Shown here piece after piece: positions 5,962 through 32,000 of a stretch of DNA of 32,000 nt; the first letter of the stretch is position 1; each line of letters starts with the position of its first letter. A model generated the notes under the pieces. It saw nothing but the letters and a program-made list of their open reading frames with translations. It did not search any database and was not told the origin of the DNA. The DNA is from Candidatus Iainarchaeum sp. (GTDB taxonomy: Archaea; Iainarchaeota; Iainarchaeia; Iainarchaeales; JACQJH01): contig JACQJH010000001.1 in NCBI GenBank assembly GCA_016205145.1, positions 480,001 to 512,000 on the forward strand. Reading direction: 5' to 3'. The position numbers were made by a program, and so were the translations under genes.

Positions 5962-5971
5962 CAAAAATTTG

Positions 5972-5980
5972 CTTTAAAAA
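5972..5980 (+). promoter_or_regulatory. putative TATA box for the tRNA-Ala transcription unit
   Basis: CTTTAAAAA in an A/T-rich context after the trpA stop, about 110 nt upstream of the tRNA. This implies a transcribed leader of roughly 80 nt. Confidence 0.4.
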
Positions 5981-6030
5981 CCCTTGCCAGAAAAATTTTT
6001 CTAATCGGTTATCGCAGGCTGTCGCAGGCA

Positions 6031-6087
6031 GAGGGTTTGAGCGTAGCGAGAACCCTCAACGTCGCACCCGCCGGGCGATGACGGCGA
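6031..6087 (+). repeat. structured tRNA 5' leader module, copy A (hairpin L1 + CAACGTCGCAC box + hairpin L2 with loop GGCGATGA)
   Basis: L1 stem is GAGGGTT (6031-6037) / AACCCTC (6051-6057). L2 stem is CGCCG (6069-6073) / CGGCG (6082-6086) with loop GGCGATGA, ending 1 nt before tRNA position 1. A homologous copy lies at 24016-24140. Confidence 0.6.
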
Positions 6088-6160
6088 GGGCCTGTAGCTC
6101 AGCTGGTAGAGCGCCGCATTCGCATTGCGGAGGCCACGGGTTCGAATCCCGTCGGGTCCA
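6088..6160 (+). tRNA. tRNA-Ala(CGC)
   Basis: 73-nt cloverleaf folded by hand: acceptor GGGCCTG/CGGGTCC with G3:U70, D arm GCTC/GAGC, anticodon loop TTCGCAT, T arm ACGGG-TTCGAAT-CCCGT, discriminator A. No encoded CCA. Confidence 0.93.
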
Positions 6161-6226
6161 AACACGCGCTTTCGATCGCGTGTGCCGAAACCAAGGCGTA
6201 TCACTGTCGTGATACGCCGGGTAAGC
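6161..6226 (+). repeat. structured tRNA 3' trailer module, copy A1
   Basis: Hairpin ACACGCG/CGCGTGT (6162-6183), linker GCCGAAACCAAGGCG, 10-bp hairpin GGCGTATCAC/GTGATACGCC, tail GGGTAAGC. Confidence 0.65.
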
Positions 6227-6230
6227 AAAA

Positions 6231-6261
6231 ACGCGCTTTCAGCGGGACCGAAACCAAGGCG
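6231..6261 (+). repeat. truncated second trailer-module copy (A2)
   Basis: Weak CGC-GCTTTCA-GCG hairpin followed by CCGAAACCAAGGCG (6248-6261). No second hairpin follows. Confidence 0.4.
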
Positions 6262-6300
6262 TACCGATGCTGCAGTTAACCGCGCGGGCTTGATTGTGAA

Positions 6301-7488
6301 TCAGGTTTTTGCAATCGCGTTTTCAAGTTCCGCAATCAAATCGTCCGCATTTTCTATTCCCACGCTCAGCCTCAGCAGGCCGTCGGTGATTCCTTTCCTT
6401 TTGCGCTCTTCCGGCGGCAGGGAACTGTGCGACATTGTCGCGGGGTGGCTGACCAGGCTTTCGACTCCGCCCAGGCTTTCGCCGTAGGTCCAGATGTGCA
6501 GATGTTCAACGAGTTTTTCCGCTGCCTTCAGCCCGCCTTTGAGCTCGAATGAAACCATTCCGCCGGATCCGGTCTGCTGTTTTTTTGCAAGGCCGTGCTG
6601 TGGATGCCCTGCCAGGCCTGGGTAATGCACTTTTTCCACTTTCGCGTTGCCTTCGAGGAATTCCGCGACTTTTTGCGCGTTCTTGTTGTGCTGTTCCATT
6701 CTCAGGTGCAGGGTTTTCAGGCCCCTCAATGCAAGGAAGCATTCCATCGAAGCCATTATGCCGCCGGTCGCGCGCGCATTGAACCGCAGGTTTTCTATGA
6801 GCTCCAAATCATCCGAGCTGATGCTGCCGCCGACCACGTCATTGTGCCCGGCATAGTATTTTGTGAGGCTGTTCAAGACAATGTCTGCGCCGAATTTTTT
6901 TGGCTTCTGGAAATGCGCGGTCAGGAAAGTGTTGTCCACAAGCAATGGAATGCCGCGGCGTTCACAGGTTTCCTTCATCGCCTTGATGTCGACAAGCTTC
7001 AGCATTGGGTTTGTGGGTGTTTCGACAAAAACAAGCTTTGTGTTCGGCTTGAGGCTTTTTTCAAGATTTTCGGGTTTTGTCAAATCAACGAAGTCGGCCT
7101 GCGCCCCGAACTTGTCCAGGACGCGCTTTGTCAGCCTGTAGAACCCGCCGTAGCAGTCGTCGTTGAAAATGATGTGGTCCTTGTTCGAGAGCGTGTGGAT
7201 CAGTGCCAATGACGCGGCAATGCCCGAGCCGAAGCAGACGCTTTGCCCGTAGCCTTCAAGATGCGACATCGCCTTTTCAAGAACCTCGCGCGTCGGCGTT
7301 GACATCCTGCCGTATTCGAAGCCGTGCGGCCTGCCGATGCCGGCCTGCCTGTAAGTTACGGCCTGGTGGATGGGCGTGCAAATTGCCCCCGTTGCGGCGT
7401 CCTGCTGGTTGCCGCCATGCACGCACAAGGTCTCGAAGCCCAGCTTCTTTTCCTCGCCCTTCCCAATCACGTCAAGTGTGTACGCCAT
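6301..7488 (-). CDS. Cys/Met-metabolism PLP-dependent enzyme (cystathionine gamma-synthase / beta-lyase / methionine gamma-lyase family)
   Basis: Motifs GFETLCVHGG, VFVETPTNPMLK and SLTKYYAGHNDV (PLP lysine). The ORF extends to 7548, but that 20-aa extension covers a TATA-like ATTATAAAAAG, so M21 at 7488 is preferred. Confidence 0.88.
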   Translation of the reverse strand: MAYTLDVIGKGEEKKLGFETLCVHGGNQQDAATGAICTPIHQAVTYRQAGIGRPHGFEYGRMSTPTREVLEKAMSHLEGYGQSVCFGSGIAASLALIHTLSNKDHIIFNDDCYGGFYRLTKRVLDKFGAQADFVDLTKPENLEKSLKPNTKLVFVETPTNPMLKLVDIKAMKETCERRGIPLLVDNTFLTAHFQKPKKFGADIVLNSLTKYYAGHNDVVGGSISSDDLELIENLRFNARATGGIMASMECFLALRGLKTLHLRMEQHNKNAQKVAEFLEGNAKVEKVHYPGLAGHPQHGLAKKQQTGSGGMVSFELKGGLKAAEKLVEHLHIWTYGESLGGVESLVSHPATMSHSSLPPEERKRKGITDGLLRLSVGIENADDLIAELENAIAKT

Positions 7489-10159: not shown

Positions 10160-11278
10160 TCAGGTGTTTCCGACCGCGCTTTTTTTGATTTCGTGGACCG
10201 CCAGCACGAACAATCCAGCAGTCCACGCGAAAGGCTTTTCGCATTTGAGCATGAATGAGTTTGCCGGAACGCCTTTTTCGTCGAGTATTTCAGGCGAGGC
10301 ATTGGCCATGTTTATGATGCCTGCGATTGCCCTGAGCTGCTGTTCCGCTTCCTTTGACAACCCCATCTGTTTCATTGCAACCGCGTTCAGGCAGCCGATC
10401 CACGGCCAGCTGAAGCCGTTATGGTAATGGTATGCCCTGAACGGCAGGAGCAGGAGCGCAATGCGCCATGGCGGATAAGGCGGAAAATTGGTTTTCATGG
10501 GCACTTTCGCAAGCTGCCTCTGCTTCACGTAATTCTGCACCATCTGCGCCTGCACACCATCGGCTATTCCCCAAAGGCACGCCAAAACGTTTCCGTCCGA
10601 GGAGAAAAAATCCTGTTCCCAGAAATCGAACCAGTCGTTGTAATAGCCGCCGTTCCAGAACCGCTGGTTCAATTTTTCCCTGACGCGTTCCGCAAGCCGT
10701 GCATGTTCTTCCGCAGGTTCCTTTTTCCCGGCAATGGCGCAAAGCTTTGAAAAATCCGACAACGCCCTGCAATAACAGCAGTTCGTGTAAAGCACGTTCC
10801 CGAATTTGAGGACAGTGTCCATCCAGTTGGCGAAAAGCCCTTCCTCGATGAGGAAATCACTGTTGCGGTCCCCCGCTTTCAGCCAGGCCATCGCCTTTTC
10901 TGCCTTTTCAAAATTGTCCAACAGGAATTTCCTGTCATTGCTTTTCTGCACATAGTCAAGGAATGCCATGAAAAAAAGCGCCTGGCTGTCGATGCAGGGC
11001 GAAAAAAGCATGGGCTTGTACGATGGCCTGAGCTTCCTTGAAACCCTGCCCGGCAGCAAGCCGTCCTTTCTCTGCAGGGAAAGGAACAGCGACAGGTTCT
11101 TTTTGGAAATTTCAAAGTCCCCGAGGCAGTTCGCGCCCAAAGAGGCGAAAAAGGAATCCCGCGCCCAGTACTCGTTGAAATTCCTCAGGCCTGCTACAAT
11201 CCCGTCCTTTGAATAGCATCTGCGCAGGTCGCCGGCCGCGGTTTCATACGCGAGCGCAATCTCGGTTTTTTCGGGCAT
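10160..11278 (-). CDS. (alpha/alpha)6-barrel glycosidase, amylo-alpha-1,6-glucosidase (GDE_C) / neutral-invertase-like
   Basis: YWARDSFFA and YHYHNGFSWPW motifs typical of GDE_C/GH100-type six-hairpin glycosidases. Confidence 0.7.
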   Translation of the reverse strand: MPEKTEIALAYETAAGDLRRCYSKDGIVAGLRNFNEYWARDSFFASLGANCLGDFEISKKNLSLFLSLQRKDGLLPGRVSRKLRPSYKPMLFSPCIDSQALFFMAFLDYVQKSNDRKFLLDNFEKAEKAMAWLKAGDRNSDFLIEEGLFANWMDTVLKFGNVLYTNCCYCRALSDFSKLCAIAGKKEPAEEHARLAERVREKLNQRFWNGGYYNDWFDFWEQDFFSSDGNVLACLWGIADGVQAQMVQNYVKQRQLAKVPMKTNFPPYPPWRIALLLLPFRAYHYHNGFSWPWIGCLNAVAMKQMGLSKEAEQQLRAIAGIINMANASPEILDEKGVPANSFMLKCEKPFAWTAGLFVLAVHEIKKSAVGNT

Positions 11279-11415: not shown

Positions 11416-13941
11416 GTGCAACGCTGGCATGCGGCTTTTCTTGCACTTCTCGCCGTATTGGTCCTTCCCGCAGGCGCATTCGCCGCGGTTTCACTCTCAA
11501 TCGCAGGCGGCGCGGCATACACCAACACCGCGACGCCGCAACTCGCCATAACCGCAGATAACACGACCGACGCCAACATGTTCTTTTCCTGCACTGGCGC
11601 GGTATGGTCAGCATCACAGCCATTCCAGGCAACTTATTCGTCTTTCAACATCACTTCCGGCGAAGGCTGTTCGTCTGGCGACGGCCTGAAACCGGTTCAC
11701 GTCAAAGTCCAAAAGCAAACCGGCGAAGAAACCGACAACAAAACGATAACCCTTGACACGTCGGTTCCGACAATTTCCGGCCGGACTCCGGCAAACAACA
11801 CTTACACTTCCAACACACTGCCGGCAATAATTTTCGATGCCAACGATTCCGGCTCAGGCATCAACGATTCAAACACGGTTTTGAAAATCGGCGGCTCCGC
11901 TGTCGACCTGACCGGCAAGAAAACCGCCACAAGCACGGGTTACAGGATTTCATACGCGATTTCCTCTGCCTTGTCGCATGCCCAGACCGTGAGCCTTGAG
12001 GCAAGCGCGGCCGACAATGCAGGAAACACTGTTTCCTCGTCCTGGTCTTTCACAGCGGATTTGCAGGGTCCATCAACCGCAAGCGTTTCATCTTCAAGCG
12101 ACACAAACAATGCGAATGTCAAGTTTTCCATAAGCAATGTTTCGGATTCCGGCATCGGCGTGACCCAAGGCAATGGAAAGGTTGCGTTTTCATGCACGAA
12201 TTCTCTGCCTTCAACAAGCGTTGCGTTCGCATCAGACGTAAACTTTGACATCACTTCGTCAAGCCACGGCTGTTCTTCTGGCGAGGGCGCAAAAGCCCTC
12301 TATTTCTGGGTTGCCGATGACTTGGGCAACTGGATGCAAACCGCTGCGCAGAAAACTGTAAACTATGATATAACAAAGCCGTCCACGCCTTCAACGCCCC
12401 GCATCACAGTCGGCGACAGCAAGATTGACCTTGCATGGGATGCGGCGTCCGACAACCTGAGCGGCCTCAAGGAATACGTCATTTACCAGGACAACGCTCT
12501 TCTCACCACTACCACGTCGACAACTTACACTGTAACCGGCCTTTCAAACGGTTCGACTTATTCTTTCAGCCTGAGTTCGCGCGACAATGCCGGCAACCAA
12601 AGCGACAAGTCCGGCAGTTCCGCTGGCGTGCCGGTGTCGTCTTCCGGCAGTTCCGGAAATTCCGGCTCTTCCGATTCATCCGATGATTCTGACAGCCCCG
12701 CGCCAACTGTGCTTGTCGACTCCACCCTGCCTGATGTTTCGTTTGTCAATCCTTCCGCGGGCGACAATGTCAAGGGCATTTTTGAGGTTAAGGTGAAGGC
12801 GACGGATGCGCGCGCGATTTACAATGTGGGCCTTTACGTCGACTCCAAGGATGAAAAAAACCTTGTCGCGGCAAAGGACGTTTCGGAGAACGACGAGTTT
12901 GCCTTTTCGGTTGATTCCTCGAAATGGCCTGACGGCAGCCATGAACTGATTGCGGTTGCAACGGACTTTTCGCCTCAGCGCAACAAGAACGAGGCAAAGC
13001 TTGCGGTTGTTTTCGCCAACGCCGAAAAAAAGCCGGAGCAGGCAGTGCAAAAGAAGGCCAAAACCGAAGAGCAAAAGCCTGAAACGGTTTATTCAAAAGT
13101 TTACATTATGCCTTCCAGGGAAAGCGCGGCAAAGGCCCTGGCCTTGCTTGGATTGGGTGCCAATGCAAGCGCAGAGGCCGCGAACACTGTTTCCAATGGA
13201 ACGCTTGAAAGGAAAATCGAGATTTCGTCTGATGCGGACAGCAACGGCTTGTTCGGCTTGAAAGTGCGGATTTCATTCACGAACGTTTCCGGCGGCGGCA
13301 GCCTGAAGGTCCTGGAATTCGTGCCAAAGGAAATAGCAGAAAAGGCTTCTTTAATCCGGTCGGAACTCCCCTTCAATGTCATTGCCGACGACCCGGTAAT
13401 AGAGTTTGACGTGAACGCGGATGCAAACCAGAGCGTTTCAATCGACTACTGGCTTGAGGCGGATTTGAACAAGGCCGAAGCGGAAAAGCTTTCAAAGGCA
13501 AACCTTGCATCCAAATTCAGCGCGCCCCCCGTTGTTCTGCCCGCGGAGACCAAAATAGATTACGCTTCGATAAAGGCCGCGGTTGAACCAAAACCGGATG
13601 ACTTGCTTTCCGGTTTTTCCGGCCTGCTGAGCCTCGCCGACATGAAGCTTCCGTTCGGGCTGAACGCGGGCATGGCTGTCCTCGGCATAATTGCGGTTTC
13701 ATTGGTGTTTTTGTTCGGAGCGTCGTTTTTGAGGAAAGCGCATTCGCCGGCTGAACAAGGCGAGCCGGGGGAAGAGCTCGGCGAAAAGGTTTTCGTCGAA
13801 GCCGACGAGACAATTGCAACGGAGCCTGTCACGGCTCCAGGGCAGATAATAAAAAGGCCCGCCGATAAAAAGCGGAAAAAGGATTCCCTGGAAAAGATTG
13901 AGGACAAAATAAAGGGCCTGCGGTCGAAAGAAGATTTATAA
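11416..13941 (+). CDS. large cell-surface protein (signal peptide, Ig/FN3-like repeats, Ser-rich linker, C-terminal TM anchor)
   Basis: The ORF opens at 11392 (TTG). GTG 11416 is preferred because it follows GGGGGAGAG and gives a WHAAFLALLAVLVLPAGAFA signal. Contains an FN3-like segment (DLAWDAASDNLSGLKEYVIYQDN...YTVTGLSNGSTYSFSLSSRDNAGN), an SSSGSSGNSGSSDSSDDSDS linker, a C-terminal TM helix GMAVLGIIAVSLVFLFGASFL and a K/E-rich tail. Confidence 0.75.
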   Translation: MQRWHAAFLALLAVLVLPAGAFAAVSLSIAGGAAYTNTATPQLAITADNTTDANMFFSCTGAVWSASQPFQATYSSFNITSGEGCSSGDGLKPVHVKVQKQTGEETDNKTITLDTSVPTISGRTPANNTYTSNTLPAIIFDANDSGSGINDSNTVLKIGGSAVDLTGKKTATSTGYRISYAISSALSHAQTVSLEASAADNAGNTVSSSWSFTADLQGPSTASVSSSSDTNNANVKFSISNVSDSGIGVTQGNGKVAFSCTNSLPSTSVAFASDVNFDITSSSHGCSSGEGAKALYFWVADDLGNWMQTAAQKTVNYDITKPSTPSTPRITVGDSKIDLAWDAASDNLSGLKEYVIYQDNALLTTTTSTTYTVTGLSNGSTYSFSLSSRDNAGNQSDKSGSSAGVPVSSSGSSGNSGSSDSSDDSDSPAPTVLVDSTLPDVSFVNPSAGDNVKGIFEVKVKATDARAIYNVGLYVDSKDEKNLVAAKDVSENDEFAFSVDSSKWPDGSHELIAVATDFSPQRNKNEAKLAVVFANAEKKPEQAVQKKAKTEEQKPETVYSKVYIMPSRESAAKALALLGLGANASAEAANTVSNGTLERKIEISSDADSNGLFGLKVRISFTNVSGGGSLKVLEFVPKEIAEKASLIRSELPFNVIADDPVIEFDVNADANQSVSIDYWLEADLNKAEAEKLSKANLASKFSAPPVVLPAETKIDYASIKAAVEPKPDDLLSGFSGLLSLADMKLPFGLNAGMAVLGIIAVSLVFLFGASFLRKAHSPAEQGEPGEELGEKVFVEADETIATEPVTAPGQIIKRPADKKRKKDSLEKIEDKIKGLRSKEDL

Positions 13942-14804: not shown

Positions 14805-15449
14805 TTGAAAATTGCCGCATCAGTCCTGTCAGCCGATTTTTCGCGCCTTGGCGAGGAAATACGCGCTGTTGATGGCGCGGGCGTTGACTGGCTCCAGTTT
14901 GACGTCATGGACGGCATTTACGTTCCGAACATTTCTTTCGGCGCGCCAATAATCGCGTCGGCGCGCAAAGCTTCAAAGCTTTTTTTCGATTCGCATTTGA
15001 TGATTGCCAAACCGGAGCGGTTCATAAGCCAGTTCGCGGAAGCCGGCAGCGACAACATCACTTTTCACGTCGAAGCAACAAGGAATCCTGCGAAAACAAT
15101 AAAGATTATCCACGACAACGGCTGCAAGGCGGGGGTTGCGGCAAACGCAAAGGTTCCGGTCAAAAAACTTCTGCCATTCCTTTCAGAAGCCGACCTGGCG
15201 CTCATAATGACGGTCAACGCCGGTTTTTCAGGCCAGTCATTCATTTCCGGGTGCCTGAAAAAGGTCGAGGCCGTGGCAAAAACCAATGAAAGGGAAAAGC
15301 TCGGCCTTGAAATACAGGTCGACGGCGGAATAAACGCAAAAACCGCGCCATTGTGCCTTGCCGCGGGGGCAAACAACCTGGTTTCGGCTTCGCACATTTT
15401 CAAATCCGCCGATTATGCGAAGGCAGTGCTTTCGCTCCGGGGCCGGTAA
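14805..15449 (+). CDS. rpe: ribulose-phosphate 3-epimerase
   Basis: Motifs ASVLSADFSRLGEEI, QFDVMDGIYVPNISFG, HLM and QVDGGI. Confidence 0.9.
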   Translation: MKIAASVLSADFSRLGEEIRAVDGAGVDWLQFDVMDGIYVPNISFGAPIIASARKASKLFFDSHLMIAKPERFISQFAEAGSDNITFHVEATRNPAKTIKIIHDNGCKAGVAANAKVPVKKLLPFLSEADLALIMTVNAGFSGQSFISGCLKKVEAVAKTNEREKLGLEIQVDGGINAKTAPLCLAAGANNLVSASHIFKSADYAKAVLSLRGR

Positions 15450-22638: not shown

Positions 22639-22650
22639 ATATTTAAAAAG
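22639..22650 (+). promoter_or_regulatory. putative TATA box (ATATTTAAAAAG) upstream of the structured non-coding block
   Basis: A/T-rich box about 25 nt upstream of a G-rich start near 22672-22679. It is near-palindromic, so the strand is ambiguous. Confidence 0.35.
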
Positions 22651-22674
22651 TTGCAGGCAAAAACCTTGAAAGTG

Positions 22675-22950
22675 TTGGGAGTTGAAGGGGCGAGTCATAC
22701 CGCTTGCGGTTCCCTGGCTTGCCCTCTCATTTTTATCCTGAGCCGCTTTCGTCCGGCTCGCCGTCTCGTCCGGCGGGTACGTTTTGTGGTGTTCGCGCCG
22801 TTGCGGAACACCACGCATGCTTTGCGGGGTTTGCAAGGGGTGCAACCCCTGCGTTTTATCCGGCTGGTTCGAAACCAAGGCGGCCTGCTGTTGCAAGCCG
22901 CCGAGTGAGTCAGTACTCCTGACCCTCCCCCGAAATTCCTGATTTTTTCC
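22675..22950 (+). ncRNA. candidate structured ncRNA / decayed tRNA-flank block (unclassified)
   Basis: GC-rich and dense in hairpins: ACCG-CTTG-CGGT at 22699, GAGCCG-CTTTCGTC-CGGCTC at 22740, GTGGTGTTC/GAACACCAC, and one more hairpin near 22835-22850. Possible closing stem 22687-22697 with 22920-22930 (9 of 11 bp). Orphan trailer-module copy at 22870-22910. T6 at 22943-22948. No convincing ORF. Confidence 0.35.
22870..22910 (+). repeat. orphan trailer-module copy (D), not attached to a tRNA
   Basis: CGAAACCAAGGCG, then the 10-bp hairpin GGCGGCCTGC/GCAAGCCGCC (one mismatch), then GAGTGAGT. Confidence 0.5.
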
Positions 22951-23031: not shown

Positions 23032-23235
23032 GCGGGGGTGGCGGAGCGGTCTAACGCGCCAGCCTTGAGAAACCTTTTTCTTTCTTGAGAAGAAAGAAAA
23101 AGCTTCAATGCAAAATCAAAGATTTTGCATGCATCAAAAATTTGATTTTTGATGTACCAAAAAGAAAGAACCGTTCTTTGTTTCAGGCAAGCTGGTATCC
23201 GAAAGGATGCGCGAGTTCGAATCTCGTCCCCCGCG
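23032..23235 (+). tRNA. tRNA-Ser(UGA) with a ~120-nt intron
   Basis: Class II tRNA. Acceptor GCGGGGG/CCCCCGC, 3-bp D stem, anticodon stem CCAGC (23059-23063) / GCTGG (23191-23195), loop CTTGAG^A, variable arm TATCCGAAAGGATGC, T arm GCGAG-TTCGAAT-CTCGT, discriminator G. Mature length 84 nt. Confidence 0.85.
23070..23189 (+). other. tRNA intron (canonical 37/38 position assumed; boundaries +/-1-2 nt)
   Basis: Central helix is CTTG (32-35) with CAGG (23184-23187). The 3' bulge is CA^A. The 5' bulge can be drawn as only 2 nt (relaxed BHB). Interior has four hairpins, including a perfect 13-bp one at 23074-23102. Confidence 0.7.
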
Positions 23236-23300
23236 AGCACGCAGTTTCGGCTGCGTGGAGCGAAACTAAGGCGGTTCACACTGTGAACCGCCGAGTAAGC
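23236..23300 (+). repeat. structured tRNA 3' trailer module, copy B
   Basis: Hairpin CACGCAG-TTTCGG-CTGCGTG (23238-23257), linker GAGCGAAACTAAGGCG, 10-bp hairpin GGCGGTTCAC/GTGAACCGCC, tail GAGTAAGC. Confidence 0.65.
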
Positions 23301-23387
23301 AAAAAAATCACATCGCGTTTTTCGCCTTGCAAAACCGGTTTCGTTTTTAAACATTTTCCACCCAATCTTGGACAAGGTGAGTTGTGG

Positions 23388-24015: not shown

Positions 24016-24140
24016 GAGGCATTGAGCTTTTGCGAAATGCCTCAACATCGCACGTTGGCGACGAAAACGCGCTGAAAGCGCGTAGGGCTATGCGAGTGAA
24101 ACGAGCATAGTGCGTCGCACCAGACGGGCGATGACGTCTT
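24016..24140 (+). repeat. structured tRNA 5' leader module, copy C (expanded)
   Basis: L1 stem is GAGGCATT (24016-24023) / AATGCCTC (24036-24043), followed by CAACATCGCAC. Two extra hairpins follow: ACGCGC-TGAAA-GCGCGT and CTATGC-GAGTGAAACGA-GCATAG. Then GTCGCACC and L2, AGACG (24122-24126) / CGTCT (24135-24139), with loop GGCGATGA. Confidence 0.6.
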
Positions 24141-24324
24141 GCGGGGGTGGCGGAGTGGTCTAACGCGCCAGCCTGGAACTGCCCTTTCTTTTCTTTGAAA
24201 AAGAAAAGAAAGTGCAAGGTGCCCAAAGAAAAGAAAACGGGCCATTGCCCGGAAAAGGCGCTTTGCAAGGCACCAACAAGCTGGTTTCCGCAAGGAAGCG
24301 CGAGTTCGAATCTCGTCCCCCGCG
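24141..24324 (+). tRNA. tRNA-Ser(GGA) with a 100-nt intron
   Basis: Exons are nearly identical to tRNA-Ser(UGA). Anticodon stem CCAGC (24168-24172) / GCTGG (24280-24284), loop CTGGAA^A, variable arm TTTCCGCAAGGAAGC, discriminator G. Mature length 84 nt. Confidence 0.88.
24179..24278 (+). other. tRNA intron at the canonical 37/38 position with a good hBHBh' motif
   Basis: The 5' bulge is AA^C. Helix h' is TGCC (24180-24183) with GGCA (24269-24272). The central helix is CTGG with CCAA (3 of 4 bp). The 3' bulge is CA^A. A perfect 13-bp hairpin lies at 24184-24212. Confidence 0.8.
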
Positions 24325-24388
24325 TGCCGCTTTCGGGCGGCAGTGCCGAAACCAAGGCGTATTGCTAATCGCAATACGCCGAGTAGGC
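24325..24388 (+). repeat. structured tRNA 3' trailer module, copy C
   Basis: Hairpin TGCCGC-TTTCGG-GCGGCA (24325-24342), linker GTGCCGAAACCAAGGCG, 10-bp hairpin GGCGTATTGC/GCAATACGCC, tail GAGTAGGC. Confidence 0.65.
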
Positions 24389-24443
24389 TCAATCAGGCAA
24401 AAAGGCTATTAAGCTTTAGCAGAAAGAATTAATCTTACTCAAA

Positions 24444-24526
24444 GCGGGGTTACCCAAGCGGTTAACGGGAGCGGGTTGAGGGCCCGTAGCTTAGTGCTTA
24501 CAGCGGTTCGAATCCGCTACCCCGCA
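24444..24526 (+). tRNA. tRNA-Leu(GAG)
   Basis: 83-nt class II cloverleaf: acceptor GCGGGGT/ACCCCGC, D arm CCC/GGG, anticodon stem GCGGG/CCCGT, loop TTGAGGG, long variable arm, T arm AGCGG-TTCGAAT-CCGCT, discriminator A. No intron and no trailer module. Confidence 0.9.
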
Positions 24527-24587: not shown

Positions 24588-25709
24588 ATGATTAAGACAG
24601 AATCGCAGCTTTCAAACTACTTTTCTGGGTTCGAGGAACAGATAGGCAAGCACAACGCCCAGTTAATAATTGCTTTTGCCGAAAAGCACAGGGCGACCGT
24701 TACAGAGCCGAGCCTTCAACGAATTAGCACGGTTTGCATTCGTTTGAAGTCTATTGCCAAGTGGCTGAACAAGCCTCTGGACAGGCTAACCGAAGCCGAC
24801 CTAATCAGGCTTAACACGGCAATGCGCGACAAGGGCATGAAGTCAAGCGCGGACTACCGGCAATGCCTAAAGCACTTTTTCAAGCTGACCGACAAAAAGC
24901 GTTTCTATGACCTCATTGAATCAGAATACCTGCGAAACGTCAAGAAAAAGGGCACAGACCAGCTTGTGGACGCGGAAGAATTTTGGAGTCAAAGCCAATG
25001 CAACGATTATCTCATGGAAAGCCTTAACCGTTCCAAAAGGCACGGTGCGTTTGCTGCAATTTGGTTGTCGTGTGGCATGAGGCCGCATGAAATAATGGGT
25101 TTGCATAAGGCAGACCTTGAATTGGATGGACAAAGCCTTGTAGTCAAGGTTCGGAGCGGCAAAACCGGCAAAAGAACAATCGTGTTAAACGGCAACGAAG
25201 GAACAGGGGTTTTTCGATATGTTGAGCCTTACCTTGACACTTTGAAAGACAACGAAAAGCTATTTTCCCTGACTTACAAGGCCGTTGAAAAATGCCACCA
25301 CAACATTTGTGAAAAAATAGGCTTGCCGGAAGGCAAAAGCCGAAAGCTTTACATGAGCAGAAAACGGACTTTGACACGCTGGTATAACGAGTTTGGGCTT
25401 GTCAAGGCCGCCAAAATGTGCGGCCACGTGCAAGGCGGTCGGGCAATGAAACACTATTTGGACATGACCGACGAGGAATTGAAGGAAAACAAGCGGCCGG
25501 AACGCCTTGAAAACAAGGTTTGCCCCAATCCAAATTGCAAGCAAGTCAACGAACCGCTTAGCGGCCTATGCTCCAAATGCAGCAGCCCGCTGGACAGGGA
25601 ACGCTTTGACGAGCTGATAAAAAGCAGCTTGGACGAACTGGTTGAAACAAAAATTGCGCTGGCAATCGTCAAACTCCAAAATGAAGCCCTGAAACTCAAA
25701 ACCCAATAG
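24588..25709 (+). CDS. tyrosine recombinase / integrase with C-terminal zinc ribbon
   Basis: Catalytic-region motifs GMRPHEIMGL (Arg), KTGKRTIVL and GHVQGGRAMKHY (His..Arg..Tyr). CPNPNC...CSKC ribbon near the C-terminus. Confidence 0.85.
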   Translation: MIKTESQLSNYFSGFEEQIGKHNAQLIIAFAEKHRATVTEPSLQRISTVCIRLKSIAKWLNKPLDRLTEADLIRLNTAMRDKGMKSSADYRQCLKHFFKLTDKKRFYDLIESEYLRNVKKKGTDQLVDAEEFWSQSQCNDYLMESLNRSKRHGAFAAIWLSCGMRPHEIMGLHKADLELDGQSLVVKVRSGKTGKRTIVLNGNEGTGVFRYVEPYLDTLKDNEKLFSLTYKAVEKCHHNICEKIGLPEGKSRKLYMSRKRTLTRWYNEFGLVKAAKMCGHVQGGRAMKHYLDMTDEELKENKRPERLENKVCPNPNCKQVNEPLSGLCSKCSSPLDRERFDELIKSSLDELVETKIALAIVKLQNEALKLKTQ

Positions 25710-25735
25710 GCTGCCCTTCATGTGCCAACAAAAAG

Positions 25736-25744
25736 GTTATAAAT
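25736..25744 (+). promoter_or_regulatory. putative TATA box for a leaderless small membrane gene
   Basis: GTTATAAAT centred about 26 nt upstream of ATG 25766. Confidence 0.45.
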
Positions 25745-25765
25745 GCCAGACGATTTATTTACTGT

Positions 25766-25921
25766 ATGAATAGTGCCGGAGCAGGCAATGTTGATGCAAT
25801 AGCTGTTTTTGGTGTTGCCGGAGCGATTTTAGGCGCAATTTTTCCCATTTTTGGAACCAACACCGTCATAGTTGGGCTGTTTGCCGGCATAATAATAGGG
25901 TTCCTTATACAACGGGGGTGA
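25766..25921 (+). CDS. small membrane protein (51 aa), probable 5' part of a frameshifted gene
   Basis: MNSAGAGNVDAIAVFGVAGAILGAIFPIFGTNTVIVGLFAGIIIGFLIQRG*. Two hydrophobic helices. Below the ORF-track cut-off. Confidence 0.5.
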   Translation: MNSAGAGNVDAIAVFGVAGAILGAIFPIFGTNTVIVGLFAGIIIGFLIQRG

Positions 25922-26207
25922 TTTTCTGGACACCCCAACATATATAGCAATTTTTGGGCTGTTTGCAGTTCTCCTTCTAATATACCGAAAATTCGTTCTG
26001 AAAAAAGAACTGTCATACAGAATTTATTTTGTGGTTATTCTCGGAACGTTATCTGTTGCAGAAGCCACGTCCGCAATCATTTTGTATTTTTTTAATTTGG
26101 ATTTGGGGATTATAAGCAAAGATTTGCTGTTTGTCGTTGCGGGTGGCTTAATGCTTTTGTTTTCTTTGGGTTTTGTTTTTCGGGAAATTCGCGAGACCGA
26201 AAAATAA
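25899..26207 (+). pseudogene. open +1 frame encoding further TM helices with no canonical start (3' part of the frameshifted membrane gene)
   Basis: The frame is open from 25899 and reads ...LDTPTYIAIFGLFAVLLLIYRKFVLKKELSYRIYFVVILGTLSVAEATSAIILYFFNLDLGIISKDLLFVVAGGLMLLFSLGFVFREIRETEK*. The first canonical start (GTG) is not until about 26030. Confidence 0.45.
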
Positions 26208-26259
26208 GGTTAAGAGCGCTGGAAAAAGGAAAGAAAGGCACATTAGCGGTAGACTAAAA

Positions 26260-26736
26260 CTAATTCTTGCGTTTTCTATTTGAAGTCCTTCTTTTTGCTT
26301 TTGTCTTATAAACTTCGTTTACCAACTTGTTAGAGTAATAACCCCTAATATCTATGCCCAATTCTTCACATGCTTTTTTTCTGGATTTGCCTTGCCGCTT
26401 TTTATTTAAAAGCCTTTTTTTCAAATATTCTCGGTTGTGTTCTGGGCGAATGCCAGAAACCAAAATTTTTTGCACCTTGTTAAACTGTCTTTTCTTAATT
26501 ATCGACTTTTTCGACTCACAATAAAACCCATTTCTAAGAATATAACTGATTGAGCTAACTGGCATTTTCATTATTTCCGCTGTTTTTCTGATTTCAAATT
26601 CTTCCAAAAAGACCTCAAAAATATGTCTAACCTTGTTGGCTGCTTTCTTATCAATAGTCAAAACCTGTATTACCTTCTTTTCTAGTTTATAGCCTAGCGG
26701 GGCACGCCACAAAATTTTATTGCTCATACTAATCAC
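26260..26736 (-). CDS. serine-recombinase 'recombinase domain'-like DNA-binding protein lacking the resolvase catalytic domain
   Basis: APLGYKLE...LTIDKKAANKVRHIFEVFLEEFEIRKTAEIMKMPVSSISYILRNGFYC resembles the recombinase domain that follows the catalytic domain in large serine recombinases. Basic C-terminal tail. AT-rich, on the opposite strand to its neighbours. Confidence 0.55.
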   Translation of the reverse strand: MISMSNKILWRAPLGYKLEKKVIQVLTIDKKAANKVRHIFEVFLEEFEIRKTAEIMKMPVSSISYILRNGFYCESKKSIIKKRQFNKVQKILVSGIRPEHNREYLKKRLLNKKRQGKSRKKACEELGIDIRGYYSNKLVNEVYKTKAKRRTSNRKRKN

Positions 26737-26838
26737 ACTAGTTCTAACTGGGTTTTAAACCAATATGTGGGGTGGCTTCTTGAACAGTATTCGTCAAACT
26801 TTTTTAGAAATGTTTTTCTTGGTCAAAGGGGGTATACT

Positions 26839-27003
26839 ATGGGGATGATTATGCCATCACAAAAACGATTCGGGAAAAAAATGAAACTTTGCGTTAGCGA
26901 GGCAATGTTTGCCCGTTTGCAAAAACTCGCCAAAAAAGAGGAGACGACAATTGCGGAAATCGTTCGCGCCACCCTGAAAAGGGAAGTAGGGGCGGAATTA
27001 TGA
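26839..27003 (+). CDS. ribbon-helix-helix (CopG/Arc-like) protein
   Basis: KKMKLCVSEAMFARLQKLAKKEETTIAEIVRATLKRE fits a beta-strand/helix/helix RHH pattern. AGGGGG lies upstream of ATG 26839. The ORF opens at 26767. Confidence 0.6.
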   Translation: MGMIMPSQKRFGKKMKLCVSEAMFARLQKLAKKEETTIAEIVRATLKREVGAEL

Positions 27004-27110
27004 CCTTGTTCGCTGGAATTCCTGTGGAGAAAATTCGAAAAAGTGCGGAACTCCGCGAGGCGTTCCTTGAACTCAAAAAGGCTTTCGAGCCGGGGCGCAT
27101 TGAAAAATAA
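27000..27110 (+). CDS. 36-aa hypothetical ORF coupled to the RHH gene
   Basis: ATGA overlap with the RHH stop. MTLFAGIPVEKIRKSAELREAFLELKKAFEPGRIEK*. Below the ORF-track cut-off. Confidence 0.3.
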   Translation: MTLFAGIPVEKIRKSAELREAFLELKKAFEPGRIEK

Positions 27111-27151
27111 AAAAAGGCGAGGCCCTGCAAGACCTCGGCCAAAAAGAAGGT

Positions 27152-27415
27152 ATGCCAATGCAGATTACGATTTCTAGAAATAAAAGCACGGGGCTGGCGC
27201 TTTACGACGGCAAAGCCTGCGCGGTTTGCGGGGCAACGAAAGGAGGGGCAAAACGTTGGGTGTTTGTGTTTTCATACTGTCAAAAAGCCAAGGTTTGCGG
27301 CCCGTGCGTTTTTCAAATAGGCCCAGCAAATGTTTCCGAGTGGCTTGAAAAAAAAGCTGTTTTTGACAAAAAAGGCTATTTGACCGGCTTTCGGCCGGGG
27401 GTGGTCGTCCCGTGA
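27152..27415 (+). CDS. small zinc-ribbon protein
   Basis: CAVCG...CGPC pairs of cysteines. 87 aa. Confidence 0.5.
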   Translation: MPMQITISRNKSTGLALYDGKACAVCGATKGGAKRWVFVFSYCQKAKVCGPCVFQIGPANVSEWLEKKAVFDKKGYLTGFRPGVVVP

Positions 27416-28014
27416 CCTCTACACCGGATGAAACAACAACGCTTGAAGAGAGCAGGCGAGTTTCGGAATTGAAGCACCTGAGCAAGGAAGCTTTTTTGAT
27501 ACAGATTACCGCAACGGAAAAGAAGATTCAGGAAGCTTTAGTAGCTGTGAAAAAACTCCATGCCAATGCCGAAATTATTTTGCAGGGAACCGCACTTGGC
27601 AAATTTGGAAAACTCGCAGACAAAGCTTTTACAGTTCTTCAAAAAAATGGCCAATTTTCAACAAACGATGCTAGCAAATTTGGCGTATTTGGTTCAAGAG
27701 ACCTGGACAAACTCTTCACTGAAATCTCAAAACGTTATCCTGAAGTGCGAACACAAAAAACCACGTTGTACGGCTCCAACCAGAAAATTCGGGTCGCAGT
27801 AATTGACGTACACGAGTTCGAAAAGGCAAAATCTGGGCCTTACAATGACATTCGCAATTTTGTCGTTGAGAAAAATCCGACACGTGACCAACTCATTGAA
27901 AAGTTTGGCTGGGGCGAAAAAGTCGCTAATGATACAATCGCATTGCTTGCGCGGAAGGGAATGCTTTGCTGGTCAGATGGCAGATATTCCTGGGAGGACG
28001 CTCAACTAGTCTGA
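27412..28014 (+). CDS. hypothetical protein with C-terminal winged-helix-like region (candidate Rep/iteron-binding protein)
   Basis: 200 aa, overlapping the previous stop. C-terminal NPTRDQLIEKFGWGEKVANDTIALLARKGMLCWSDGRYSW. Lies immediately upstream of the iteron-like region. Confidence 0.5.
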   Translation: MTSTPDETTTLEESRRVSELKHLSKEAFLIQITATEKKIQEALVAVKKLHANAEIILQGTALGKFGKLADKAFTVLQKNGQFSTNDASKFGVFGSRDLDKLFTEISKRYPEVRTQKTTLYGSNQKIRVAVIDVHEFEKAKSGPYNDIRNFVVEKNPTRDQLIEKFGWGEKVANDTIALLARKGMLCWSDGRYSWEDAQLV

Positions 28015-28177
28015 GGGAGTTGGGTTGTTGTAGAGTAGTATAGTAGAGTTGAAAACATATATCTCAACTAACTCCCCCCTACTTAGTTGGGTACGTTATA
28101 GGTCTATGAAAAATTATGAGAGAAAAGGAATGTTCCCAACTGGTTAAGGGGAGTTGGGTATTTTGTAAGGTGTTTTT
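28015..28177 (+). repeat. iteron / inverted-repeat region (candidate origin or operator)
   Basis: GGGAGTTGGGT at 28015-28025. GGGGAGTTGGGTA at 28148-28160. TAGTTGGGT at 28084-28092. Inverted CCCAACT at 28135-28141. Inverted pair GGGAGTT (28015) / AACTCCC (28070-28076). AGTTGA/TCAACT around the A/T core AAACATATATC. Confidence 0.6.
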
Positions 28178-28438
28178 GTGAAAAAGTCTGAAACTCAGCT
28201 TGTCCGAACAAACCTTTTGTTGCCTGAGTCTTGCCGGGCTGTGTTGAGGTTAGTTGGCTCTGGTAGCTTGTCAAAAGGTTGCAGAATTTTGGCACAGCAG
28301 GCGATTAAAACAGAGTTTGCGGCTGGCAGGCCGCGAAAATTTGACGGCGGGAAAGGCAAGGAAAATGTTGCGCATTACCACACTGGTTTTCAGAGTGCTT
28401 TCGATATACTTGAACAGCAAAAGAAGGTGGTTGGTTGA
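28178..28438 (+). CDS. hypothetical RHH-like small protein
   Basis: GTG start. VRTNLLLPESCRAVLRLVGSGSLSKGCRILAQQAIK fits a strand-helix-helix pattern. Confidence 0.45.
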   Translation: MKKSETQLVRTNLLLPESCRAVLRLVGSGSLSKGCRILAQQAIKTEFAAGRPRKFDGGKGKENVAHYHTGFQSAFDILEQQKKVVG

Positions 28439-28659
28439 ATAAAAAGAAGCGGCAAAGGCGTGTGCAGGAGTTTCTGTTTTTGGACGAGCCAACGCCCACA
28501 GCCTTGTTCCTGAAGCTGAACCGGCTTTCAAGGCAAGGCTGGCGAACCGAAATTACTGACGTCCACCATACCGAGTTTTTCCGTTCCTGCACGGCTGTTG
28601 TTTCGTGGCGTCGTGTCATGCCGCGTTTTAGCATTTCCTACACGGGAAAGGGAAACTGA
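28435..28659 (+). CDS. hypothetical basic protein (74 aa)
   Basis: TTG start overlapping the previous stop. No family recognised. Confidence 0.35.
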   Translation: MNKKKRQRRVQEFLFLDEPTPTALFLKLNRLSRQGWRTEITDVHHTEFFRSCTAVVSWRRVMPRFSISYTGKGN

Positions 28660-28678
28660 AGTCAAAGGAGGACTGACT

Positions 28679-29044
28679 ATGAAAAATGCAGAAATTAAGA
28701 AAACAAAAGAAGAAACGCCATCAACCCTTGGGAACGAAACGTCTGATGAGGAAGCCGAACCAGGGCCGAAACCCAAAGGCAGGCCGCCGAAATCTTCCAT
28801 AAAAATCGAAGGCGAACCGCAGCAGGACGCGTGCGAAAAAATGCAGCAGTTGGCAATTTGTTTGACCTCGATTGACATGAGCAAGCTTTCATGGCTGAAG
28901 AGGAAAGGCCATTTTTCATACCTGTCCGAAACGATGCGGGAACTCGTGCGTGCCGAGTTTTTGCGGCTGCACCCCGAACCACCATTGTGGCCGGATGATA
29001 GTGTTTGGAAGAAACAGGGGAAGGACAAGACGACGGTTGGTTGA
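28679..29044 (+). CDS. hypothetical protein with acidic/AT-hook-like N-terminus and RHH-like C-terminus
   Basis: AGGAGG lies 7 nt upstream of ATG 28679. Contains PKPKGRPPKS and QLAICLTSIDMSKLSWLKRKGHFSYLSETMRELVRAEF. Confidence 0.5.
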   Translation: MKNAEIKKTKEETPSTLGNETSDEEAEPGPKPKGRPPKSSIKIEGEPQQDACEKMQQLAICLTSIDMSKLSWLKRKGHFSYLSETMRELVRAEFLRLHPEPPLWPDDSVWKKQGKDKTTVG

Positions 29045-29053
29045 GGCAAGAAG

Positions 29054-29260
29054 GTGGTTTGTTTGGTGAAATCGAGGCGAAAGCTGCTCAACGAACTCGG
29101 CGGCTTGAGGCGCAGCAATAACGCTTTGAAAAGCGAGCTTGACGCATTAAGATTGCCGGAAGGCGAGCTTTGGCGCAAGGCGCATACATTGTTTCAAGAA
29201 AACCTGCGGCTTCGTGCAGAATTGGAACAGATACGAAAACAGAGGGCTAGTTTCCCATGA
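29054..29260 (+). CDS. small coiled-coil protein
   Basis: Heptad-like L/E/R-rich sequence ALKSELDALRLPEGELWRKAHTLFQENLRLRAELEQIRKQ. Confidence 0.4.
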   Translation: MVCLVKSRRKLLNELGGLRRSNNALKSELDALRLPEGELWRKAHTLFQENLRLRAELEQIRKQRASFP

Positions 29261-29346
29261 AACCCGCAGCAATCGCACAGGATTCACACAACTTCTGACA
29301 GGATTGCAACCAAAACAGACCTTTTTGGGCGTTTTTCAGTCATTTT

Positions 29347-29369
29347 AAGCCCATTTTGGGCTTGTTTTG
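29347..29369 (+). terminator. hairpin plus T-run (possible terminator of the 28178-29260 gene block)
   Basis: AAGCCCA-TTT-TGGGCTT (29347-29363) followed by GTTTTG. Confidence 0.35.
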
Positions 29370-29543
29370 AAGCCTTTTCCGGCTGCTTTCTCGGCCGGTG
29401 AGGGGTGTGTGTGAGATGCTTTTTGCTGGGCTACTTTTATCTGTAAACCCCATTAAATGATTCGCAAAGTAATTTGACGATTACCAAAAAAATTTTTTTC
29501 GATGGCAACTGCTGCCGCAATAGCATTTGTTTAGGGTGGTTGG

Positions 29544-30068
29544 ATGGCTCGGAAAATCATTGGGCGATACCTATTATCGAGAGGTGTCTCTATTATTGGC
29601 CGGTCAAAAATCAAAAACAAAGCCAATTTTCCAAAAAATTTTCAGAAAACCGAGTATCGACTCGACGAAAAGAAAAGCGTTTACTTGCAATGGGCTGAAA
29701 TCAGGGATGCGTGGGTTAACTTCCAAAGCCTCGATGACCTGACCACTTGGCTGGAAGACATTTTGCCTAACGCTTCCGGCAAATATTATATCAGATGCTT
29801 CGCTGAATGGCACGCGTTCATTCCCCAGCCAACCACAAAGAAACGGTTGAAAAGAAAACGCGGCCGACCGTTCAGCAAAAAGGAAAGAAAGTTTAGAATT
29901 GGTTGGGACATCATTTGTGCCTTTGCCATAGAATCCGGCACGGTAATGAGAGTCTTCGCGCACAAGCGAGGCAAAACCGATTATTCGCCGAAGCGGCGGA
30001 ATGCTTACTGGCTTTTGGGTGCAATCCAAGACCAGAAGGAAGGCAAGCATGTCTTCGACCAGATTTAA
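29544..30068 (+). CDS. hypothetical protein (174 aa)
   Basis: GGGTGG lies upstream of the ATG. The composition looks more protein-like than the overlapping minus-strand ORF. Contains a basic KKRLKRKRGRPFSKKERK stretch. Confidence 0.5.
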   Translation: MARKIIGRYLLSRGVSIIGRSKIKNKANFPKNFQKTEYRLDEKKSVYLQWAEIRDAWVNFQSLDDLTTWLEDILPNASGKYYIRCFAEWHAFIPQPTTKKRLKRKRGRPFSKKERKFRIGWDIICAFAIESGTVMRVFAHKRGKTDYSPKRRNAYWLLGAIQDQKEGKHVFDQI

Positions 30069-30597
30069 AGGCGGGCAAAGCCTACATGCTTTTTTCGCAA
30101 ACCATTTGCCTTCAACCCGCAACGCCCTGCCCCGCAAACGGTTAAGGCATTGCCAGCAAGGGAGTTTAGTAGAAAAGCCCCGCATTTGCCTTCAAGCCAA
30201 GCAGGAGCGCGGGCGCAAAAGCCTTGCAGTTGAAATTAAGCCATGCCAACAAAAGATTAACCATGCTGGCTGCGCGTCCATAAAATCATTTGCGAAAATC
30301 GCAAGCCAAAAGGGCAGGAGTTGTGAGGCCATTTCTCATTAAGGCCTTAACACTTTTGAAAAGCGTTGACGAATACAAGCCCTTTCCCGAAAACCCTTTC
30401 GACTATTCCAGCCAGCCCCTTGTGCAGAAAAGCCCCACAGAAGGCTTCAAGGCTTTCCACTTCACCGGCGAAAAATGCCTAAAGAATAGTTCAACATATG
30501 CAGCAAAAACATTGCGCTTTTGAAAAGTGTTTGCCTTTCAATCAAAAGCCTTCAACGCTTCTCTAAAGGGTCAATTGTTTTTCATTCATTTCTCGTT
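30069..30597 (+). repeat. repeat-bearing, probably non-coding region of the element
   Basis: Exact 13-nt CATTTGCCTTCAA at 30103-30115 and 30183-30195. Related GTTTGCCTTTCAA around 30529-30542 and AAGCCTTCAACG around 30546-30557. Only weak basic ORFs (30001..30342, 30290..30523). Confidence 0.4.
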
Positions 30598-31446: not shown

Positions 31447-31535
31447 TATACCACACTCTTATTGTCAAAACCCAGTATAAATATGTTACGTTACTGTTAC
31501 TCTGGCTTTAATTTAGGGGTTCAGTCACTAATTCT

Positions 31536-31784
31536 ATGTCTGAGTATGACCTGTTGGCGCAGATTAGGCGCGGCAAGATTAAACCCCAAATCCTTAAGCT
31601 TTTACAAGAACCAAAAACGCCAACAGACTTGAAAAAGATTATCGGAGCCCATAGAGAAACAATCAGCAGAGCAATACTCGAAATGGAAGAAAAAGGCCTA
31701 GTAACTTGTCTGAACCCAAAACAACCAAACTTTAGGTACTATCAAATTACAAACAAAGGAAAAAACCTATTGAAGAAAGTATGA
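31536..31784 (+). CDS. small winged-helix transcriptional regulator
   Basis: 82 aa. PTDLKKIIGAHRETISRAILEMEEKGLVTCLNP...YYQITNKG fits an HTH plus wing pattern. Confidence 0.6.
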   Translation: MSEYDLLAQIRRGKIKPQILKLLQEPKTPTDLKKIIGAHRETISRAILEMEEKGLVTCLNPKQPNFRYYQITNKGKNLLKKV

Positions 31785-31802
31785 GAATTTCTTATTTGCA
31801 CC

Positions 31803-32000
31803 CTAGTTAAGTAATTTTTCGCATTCTGCACTTGATTCACGCCATATACAAAATGTTACTTCTTTTTCTAGGGGGTATGACTGTTCTGTGCAATTTTCAC
31901 AATAGAGGGATACATTTAATTTGTGTAAGCCCACGGGGACGTTTTCTGGGTTACACTTTTGTTTATGTGCCCCGTCTGGCCTCTCGCTGCAGGCATTGAA
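31803..32000 (-). CDS. C-terminal fragment of a Cys-rich protein (N-terminus beyond window)
   Basis: The minus frame is open from the window edge to TAG (31803-31805): ...CSERPDGAHKQKCNPENVPVGLHKLNVSLYCENCTEQSYPLEKEVTFCIWRESSAECEKLLN*. Confidence 0.35.
   Translation of the reverse strand, partial: FNACSERPDGAHKQKCNPENVPVGLHKLNVSLYCENCTEQSYPLEKEVTFCIWRESSAECEKLLN

Follow-up and report, generated by a model that had tools for sequence, protein, structure and literature searches.

Conserved hairpins in the 5' leaders and 3' trailers of tRNA genes in a Diapherotrites subclade

The tRNA genes and their leaders

The window analysed here, a stretch of 32,000 nt, belongs to a 'Candidatus Diapherotrites' MAG of the DPANN archaea. 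Its genes are otherwise ordinary and include a trp operon, a Cys/Met PLP enzyme, an MFS transporter, a GMP synthase, an FKBP isomerase, and an integrase. Four tRNA genes are present, the first of which, tRNA-Ala(CGC), has trpA just upstream; the trpA product shows 100% identity to a Candidatus Diapherotrites protein encoded on a 613-kb contig. An earlier note on this DNA had described two hairpins, L1 and L2, in the regions upstream of tRNA-Ala(CGC) and tRNA-Ser(GGA). The tRNA genes and the features of these two leaders are as follows.

5963-5981 and 5991-6002, plus strand: two A/T-rich TATA-like blocks of the tRNA-Ala leader, upstream of L1
6031-6057, plus strand: L1 of the tRNA-Ala(CGC) leader, stem GAGGGUUU / GAACCCUC, apex GA-GC-GUA-GC-GA
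6058-6068, plus strand: single-stranded conserved tail of the tRNA-Ala leader, AACGUCGCACC (family consensus YCGSAC)
6069-6086, plus strand: L2 of the tRNA-Ala(CGC) leader, CGCCG (6069-6073), loop GGCGATGA (6074-6081), CGGCG (6082-6086); position -1 is A6087, unpaired
6088-6160, plus strand: tRNA-Ala(CGC), found by ARAGORN and Rfam
23032-23235, plus strand: tRNA-Ser(UGA), with an intron at 23070-23189 and without L1 or L2
23959-23980, plus strand: A/T-rich TATA-like block of the tRNA-Ser(GGA) leader, kept in the related contig L111
24016-24043, plus strand: L1 of the tRNA-Ser(GGA) leader, stem GAGGCAUU / AAUGCCUC, apex GA-GC-UUUU-GC-GA
24044-24053, plus strand: first tail copy of the tRNA-Ser(GGA) leader, AACAUCGCAC
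24054-24111, plus strand: inserted domain, in the Ser(GGA) leader only, read from the sequence and kept in L111
24112-24121, plus strand: second tail copy of the tRNA-Ser(GGA) leader, GCGUCGCACC
24122-24139, plus strand: L2 of the tRNA-Ser(GGA) leader, AGACG (24122-24126), loop GGCGATGA (24127-24134), CGTCT (24135-24139); position -1 is U24140
24141-24324, plus strand: tRNA-Ser(GGA), found by ARAGORN and Rfam
24179-24278, plus strand: intron of tRNA-Ser(GGA), 100 nt, limits read from the sequence
24444-24526: tRNA-Leu(GAG), without L1 or L2

Both elements lie where the earlier note had placed them: L1 with its tail CTCAAC(G/A)TCGCAC occupies 6031-6067 and 24016-24053, and each copy of L2 ends 1 nt short of tRNA position +1. 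Written as RNA, L2 is CGCCG-GGCGAUGA-CGGCG in the Ala leader and AGACG-GGCGAUGA-CGUCU in the Ser leader. The domain inserted into the Ser(GGA) leader, of about 65 nt, has the direct repeat (A/G)UCGCAC on both flanks and contains two hairpins, one at 24067-24083 and a second, bracketed by GA dinucleotides, at 24088-24110 (CUAUGC-GA-GUGAAAC-GA-GCAUAG).

The leader thus stands directly 5' of tRNA +1 with a promoter-like box upstream, the position expected for the leader of an RNase P substrate. In every tRNA-linked copy of the leader, including those in the relatives described below, a TATA-like A/T block has its centre 24-47 nt before L1 begins, and no such block occurs between L1 and the tRNA in any of them; the primary transcript would accordingly begin at L1 or close to it. 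The block of tRNA-Ala, ctttaaaaaccc, is kept in the orthologues L080 and L082; the sequence around it is not. Judged from the position of the box, the proposal that the leader lies downstream of a promoter and is transcribed is probably correct.

Two further observations concern the neighbouring tRNA genes. The long introns of the tRNA-Ser genes (100-120 nt, position 37/38) share a family of elements consisting of a polypyrimidine/polypurine hairpin, CCUUUCUUUU...AAAAGAAAGG, and a following ...CCCAAAGAAAA. This element is found at 23070-23189 and 24179-24278 of the window, at L104:10850-10940, 10980-11060, 12670-12740, and 15000-15085, and at L112:3090-3200; among relatives it forms the intron of tRNA-Ala(CGC) and of both tRNA-Ser genes, and it also serves as a 3' trailer directly after tRNAs. 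A tyrosine-integrase-like ORF (24588-25709) lies directly 3' of tRNA-Leu(GAG), and the region past it (25700-32000) has a G+C content of 0.41-0.47 versus about 0.52. This arrangement suggests that an element has inserted itself at the tRNA gene, and a search for an att-like repeat of the tRNA 3' end found none within the window.

Covariation and conservation of the leader hairpins

Relatives were collected by a metagenome scan that used the 3' trailer module (see below) as its handle, followed by filtering, and additional related contigs (Logan) were found through homologues of trpA and the FKBP gene. The trailer pattern had a single match among the GTDB representative genomes, which do not include the species of the window; this match was in an alphaproteobacterial MAG and was taken as chance. 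A scan of viral contigs returned 18 matches, none with the hairpin. Three independent Logan assemblies of the same species (L001, L101, and L102) all end at the equivalent of window position 6114, 153 nt past trpA and within tRNA-Ala, an effect expected of a sequence repeated elsewhere in the genome.

The earlier note had proposed that the leader idea be given up if the genome held no further copies. Copies are in fact present before tRNAs in related metagenome and MAG contigs: before tRNA-Ala(UGC) within a 16S-23S spacer (L014), before the orthologous tRNA-Ala(CGC) in L080 and L081 (trpA 94% identical) and in L082 (trpA 81% identical), before tRNA-Pro(GGG) (L017), before both tRNA-Ser(UGA) and tRNA-Ser(GGA) in the close relative L111, and before tRNA-Ser(GCU) in L112, a MAG of low G+C content with an FKBP of only 56% identity. 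An orphan unit resembling the leader, with no tRNA after it, is found at L033:1902-1975, about 60 nt past the trailer of a tRNA-Gln and its T run. It consists of L1 and an L2-like hairpin (1902-1956), with L1 reading GCGGCAUC-AAGCAACAGCGAC-GAUGCCGC, the tail AAACCGCAU, and the hairpin AGCCG-GCCGA-CGGCU, followed by CGGCGGAUGAAAUCGC.

Eight copies of L1 from different tRNAs and genomes were aligned outwards from the invariant apex, with one bulged nucleotide taken out of each of two rows to keep the columns in register. Standard pairs make up 96.3% of this alignment versus 67% in shuffles, and changes on both sides of the stem occur at 7 of 10 pairs. The covariation score is 0.84 compared to 0.21 in shuffles, was reached by none of 500 shuffles, and is lost when the pairing register is shifted. 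Four cells of the alignment hold G-U pairs; these would be A-C mismatches on the opposite strand, and the structure must therefore form in RNA with the sense of the tRNA. L2 behaves similarly, with 95% standard pairs against 75% in shuffles (eight copies), double-sided changes at four of its five pairs, and no shuffle out of 500 that attains its score; its stem variants include CGCCG/CGGCG, AGACG/CGUCU, AGCCG/CGGCU, and AACA/UGUU. RNAalifold recovered each of the two hairpins independently. The central proposal, that unrelated tRNAs share a structured leader, is therefore borne out by covariation of both L1 and L2 across the copies.

The position of L2 is held closely as well. Seven tRNA-linked copies have a local L2 hairpin, and the spacer to the tRNA is 1 nt in five of these and 0 nt in two. 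When each 30-nt upstream stretch is shuffled, an equally good hairpin ends 0-1 nt before +1 in 0.6-10% of cases, and a G+C-rich hairpin in this place is absent from all 15 leaderless tRNAs compared. At the orthologous tRNA-Ala(CGC) of L080 and L081, a duplicated 14-nt unit (GGACGAAAUCGCCG) is found and no local L2 hairpin lies beside the tRNA.

Conservation of the L2 loop does not extend as far as the earlier note supposed. The loop described there as invariant, GGCGAUGA, is found only in the window genome and in L111 Ser(GGA), and relatives carry GGCGAAAU, UGCGUGA, GGCGUGC, GGCGUU, AACGAAAC, or GCCGA, the sole constant part being C-G at loop positions 3-4. What had been taken as the invariant element is thus the least conserved, and the parts that are invariant, the L1 apex and the tail, had been missed. 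The apex motif RA-GC-N3-4-GC-GR is the most conserved stretch of the entire leader: a G-C and a C-G pair close a loop of 3-4 nt, and these are followed by an invariant A.G and then by one or two purine-purine oppositions. L1 with its tail was found at Diapherotrites loci only in a scan of the 717 kb of collected sequence. The 8-mer GGCGATGA taken by itself occurs four times in the 32-kb window, where 0.96 matches are expected; 2 of 100 shuffles also reach four, which is not significant, and the case must therefore rest on comparison with other sequences.

Several other pairings involving the leader were considered and rejected. For the two window copies, the minimum-energy fold given by RNAfold has, in place of L2, a helix that joins the tail to the L2 loop (GUCGC.CC of the tail pairing with GG.GCGAU). 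Across the family this competing helix does no better than shuffling (73.6% paired versus 73.4%), and L2 is thus the conserved fold. A pseudoknot between tail and L2 loop amounts to 3-6 bp in varying registers, which is at chance level. Pairing of leader with trailer, as a processing stem or BHB, is predicted only for the tRNA-Ser(GGA) copy of the window and is not kept in L111, and a kissing contact of an L2 loop (CGAAA) with the trailer loop (UUUCG) is feasible in L014 and L080 and not in the window copies.

Known RNA families do not account for the leader. With Rfam 15, which includes the hammerhead, pistol, HDV-like, hatchet, and twister families, only tRNAs reach the gathering score in these sequences and everything else stays at or below about 24 bits; permissive thresholds on short regions likewise yielded nothing but tRNAs, with neither leader nor trailer matched. 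Box C/D sRNAs have box C (RUGAUGA) close to their 5' end, box D (CUGA) close to their 3' end, and a terminal stem; this identity was discarded, as the leader has its sole C-like box (GCGAUGA) at the 3' end, offers no CUGA partner, and gives no C/D match above noise. A hammerhead formed by GAUGA and GAAAC, which would need a CUGANGA core, a stem II hairpin, and GAAA in that order, with stems I and III about an NUH site, was likewise set aside, given that GCGAUGA lacks U4, GAAAC lies past the whole tRNA, and there is no three-stem junction. H/ACA-like guides are defined by an ANA box 14-15 nt from the stem base and a pseudouridylation pocket (bioRxiv 10.1101/016246); the stem of L1 is continuous and without a pocket, with no ANA at +14/+15 in the window Ala copy and an ACA at +3 in the window Ser copy.

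A K-turn is built on tandem sheared G.A and A.G pairs, both of which are required. The earlier note had suggested that L7Ae might bind the L2 loop, GGC-GA-U-GA, as a K-loop, and this reading of L2 fails on geometry, with a single nucleotide between the GA dinucleotides, and on conservation, with GAUGA missing from L2 in five of seven homologues (L014, L082, L017, L112, and L111 Ser(UGA)). The idea can be transferred from L2 to L1, with the L1 apex and the hairpin at 24088-24110 binding L7Ae as a K-loop or K-turn RNP that would mark or recruit the precursor. Five of the eight L1 apices do have the outline stem-GA-loop-GA-stem, the Ser leader has a second hairpin of the same form, and a K-loop is by definition a K-turn that has fused with an apical loop (bioRxiv 10.1101/016246). 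L7Ae is present in Diapherotrites (PMC4919917) and is a subunit of archaeal RNase P (PMC4245976). The detailed structure of L1 argues against this: the A.G pair is invariant in all eight copies, but the pair next to it is G.A in only five, being G.G in L111 and A.A in both L112 and L033, and with two G-C pairs formed within the loop there is no 3-nt bulge. Box D, ACA box, and Rfam C/D or H/ACA matches are also all absent, and we consider L7Ae binding of this kind unlikely. As a side observation, a similar A.G / A.R motif lies beside a C-G pair at the base of the second trailer hairpin, so that the purine motif recurs in leader and trailer.

The 3' trailer module and its distribution

Three of the four tRNAs in the window are followed by a conserved 3' module that the earlier note had missed and that is more widespread than the leader. 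The module is about 65 nt long and consists of a hairpin with a UUUCG loop, CGAAACYAA, a 10-bp hairpin GGCG.../...CGCC, and GRGURRGC. The copies in the window are the following.

6161-6228, plus strand: first trailer copy of tRNA-Ala, with a UUUCG-loop hairpin, CCGAAACCAA, hairpin GGCGUAUCAC/GUGAUACGCC, and GGGUAAGC (E = 1.2e-20)
6231-6291, plus strand: second, degenerate trailer copy of tRNA-Ala, in tandem (E = 0.85), then a T run at 6306-6310
22845-22912, plus strand: trailer at the 3' end of an unannotated RNA (E = 3.5e-15)
23236-23302, plus strand: trailer of tRNA-Ser(UGA) (E = 3.9e-19)
24325-24390, plus strand: trailer of tRNA-Ser(GGA) (E = 2.4e-19)

Copies elsewhere are located at L014:169-235 and 490-557, L017:3074-3141, L033:1778-1846, L044:1457-1524, L073:94-161, L080:1525-1592, L082:2103-2169, and L108:405-473. 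Both hairpins covary in an alignment of 15 copies, with changes on both sides in 5 of 7 pairs of the first and 6 of 10 pairs of the second, and none of 500 shuffles does as well. A covariance model of the module, with E values of 1e-13 to 1e-21, places it behind tRNA-Ala, both tRNA-Ser genes, tRNA-Pro(UGG), tRNA-Gln, and tRNA-Lys, and also matches the 3' flank of 16S rRNA and the end of the unannotated RNA; all of its matches fall within this clade, and more distant relatives give none. Complementarity between the UUUCG loop and the CGAAA that comes after it holds in 92% of cells, both sides being unvarying, and a UUUCG:CGAAA pseudoknot may form. T runs follow the trailer, suggesting that it is transcribed before termination. 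A ribozyme of the pistol, HDV, or hatchet type found no support, given the absent Rfam match and the variable distance of 0 to 4 nt between the tRNA 3' end and the trailer.

The unannotated RNA that carries one of these modules is about 235 nt long (about 22675-22912, plus strand) and is conserved in L111 (L111:215-420), where its 5' part, GUGUUGGGAGUUGAAGGGGCGAGUCAUACCGC..., is the same. It has its own TATA-like box, acatatttaaaa, at about 22648-22660, a UUUCG-loop hairpin at 22741-22760, and the trailer module as its 3' end, and it had no match in Rfam at E values up to 10. In the 16S-23S spacer of L014 (L014:240-340), the 16S flank ends with a trailer, which is followed by a TATA-like box, aaaaaatttaaaacc, and then by the unit of L1, L2, and tRNA-Ala. 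This order suggests that the 16S rRNA and the part comprising tRNA-Ala and 23S may be transcribed separately.

Both modules are patchy within the clade. The earlier observation that tRNA-Ser(UGA) and tRNA-Leu(GAG) have no leader holds for the window, but tRNA-Ser(UGA) is not free of elements altogether, as it carries the 3' trailer. The same tRNA-Ser(UGA) lacks L1 and L2 in the window and in L108 and has them in L111, and trailer copies have been duplicated or replaced. L104 (trpA 61% identical) has neither leader nor trailer; it keeps the gene order of trpA, tRNA-Ala(CGC), ..., tRNA-Ser(UGA), tRNA-Ser(GGA), tRNA-Leu(GAG), with TATA-like boxes about 30 nt from the tRNAs. The more distant relatives L103, L106, L107, L113, and L114 have none of the modules either. 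Leader and trailer modules are thus gained and lost between orthologous tRNA genes.

A two-sided system of proposed precursor modules

Leader and trailer together form a two-sided system that is matched by no Rfam family. With moderate confidence, we interpret L1 and L2 as the two conserved hairpins in a structured 5' leader that is transcribed as part of tRNA precursors, forms a pair with the 3' trailer, is attached to stable-RNA genes in one Diapherotrites subclade, and is cut off by RNase P, as the trailer is by RNase Z. The hairpins, their location on the tRNA strand, their position, their conservation, and their distribution are established by the comparisons above. The primary transcript would start at or just before L1, which would cap its 5' end, and L2 would fold the G+C-rich 3' part of the leader upon itself, so that pairing with the acceptor stem would be prevented and only nucleotide -1 would stay unpaired. 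Cleavage by RNase P between -1 and +1 would free the leader, and RNase Z would free the trailer. Removal of the leader by RNase P is plausible, as the full set of five RNase P proteins is encoded in Diapherotrites genomes (PMC4919917). The L1 apex (RA-GC...GC-GR), the tail (YCGSAC), and the C-G of the L2 loop are probably contacted by a protein that takes part in maturation. The leader appears to be dispensable for tRNA maturation as such, as L080 and L081 do without L2 and the window tRNA-Ser(UGA), tRNA-Leu, and several tRNAs of relatives are leaderless. A stable hairpin at -2 might even be a hindrance rather than a help to RNase P.

A comparison with known systems shows both similarities and disparities. 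Ordinary tRNA leaders are short, have no structure, and show no conservation from one tRNA to the next. The leader described here resembles those removed by RNase P in lying directly 5' of +1 and downstream of a promoter, with a presumed cut at -1/+1, but it is 60-130 nt long, has two covarying hairpins and conserved unpaired motifs, and is common to Ala, Ser, and Pro tRNAs, while relatives with the same gene order have essentially none. The K-turns and K-loops of box C/D RNA, H/ACA RNA, and RNase P RNA share with the L1 apex and the hairpin at 24088-24110 the closure by tandem G.A / A.G beside the loop, and the L2 loop of the window genome contains a box-C-like GAUGA; the leader differs from them in having no 3-nt bulge, box D, ACA box, or guide architecture, and in that the second sheared pair of L1 is not conserved. 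The boxB-boxA elements of bacterial rRNA operons, a hairpin and a single-stranded box in the leader and the 16S-23S spacer, offer a possible analogy, as the leader too has a hairpin and then a conserved single-stranded box at stable-RNA genes, including the 16S-23S spacer of L014. There is, however, no sequence similarity between the two, and archaea are not known to have NusB-dependent antitermination of the bacterial kind. Other structured RNAs that share a transcript with a tRNA, and have RNase P or RNase Z sites as their limits, are the 3'ETS-leuZ sponge of E. coli and those of tRNA-snoRNA and tRNA-C/D sRNA dicistrons, from which the leader differs in having no known trans function, guide boxes, or target.

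This last comparison bears on the alternative that the leader, and the trailer with it, is a small RNA in its own right, for which the tRNA would act only as a processing signal. Such an RNA would be released by RNase P and RNase Z, protected by its terminal hairpins, and active in trans through the conserved tail. Its appeal lies in the structured ends of the leader with a sequence-conserved single-stranded tail, in the orphan L1 and L2-like hairpin of L033, which has no tRNA, and in the presence of the trailer module on an RNA that is not a tRNA. No target complementarity was found when the tail was compared by eye with trailers and loops, where matches stayed at chance level, and the strict placement of L2 at 0-1 nt from +1 would be needless for an RNA acting in trans. 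We regard this alternative as improbable.

The patchy occurrence at orthologous genes, exemplified by tRNA-Ser(UGA), could also be explained by a functionless repeat family that spreads around tRNA genes by duplication or gene conversion. Trailer copies in tandem and swapped, the direct repeat that flanks the Ser-leader insertion, the duplicated 14-nt unit of L080, and the orphan copy in L033 would all be consistent with such a family. It is rendered quite unlikely by the compensatory changes seen between lineages that share only 56-94% identity in the neighbouring proteins, by loops and tail that are conserved while the stems vary, and by the copies always being on the tRNA strand in the same register to +1. 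A chance likeness of two G+C-rich upstream regions, which the insignificance of the 8-mer alone in the window would allow, is refuted by the comparative data (covariation of L1 and L2, fixed position, and an L1 and tail limited to the clade) and can be given virtually no weight.

The interpretation as a structured leader and trailer of stable-RNA precursors can be carried further, to a highly speculative proposal that this DPANN clade has a stable-RNA maturation system of its own, which would recognize its substrates by these modules. The GA-bracketed hairpins may recruit L7Ae, and thereby RNase P, in cis. Alternatively, L2 and nucleotide -1 may mimic an acceptor stem and its discriminator, so that RNase Z and not RNase P makes the tRNA 5' end; RNase Z leaves a 5' phosphate on the downstream product. 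The compact and possibly pseudoknotted trailer might be a new self-cleaving or nuclease-blocking RNA.

What flanks a tRNA in its precursor is usually regarded as disposable. In this subclade, unrelated tRNAs, a 16S-23S spacer, and one RNA of unassigned family have the same 5' and 3' modules, which are kept by compensatory evolution, and the gain and loss of these modules between close relatives amounts to a natural experiment. Should the modules direct RNase P or RNase Z, or serve as binding sites for a common protein, they would be the first family of conserved cis-acting signals for maturation of stable RNAs to be described in archaea, and Rfam would gain two new RNA motifs.
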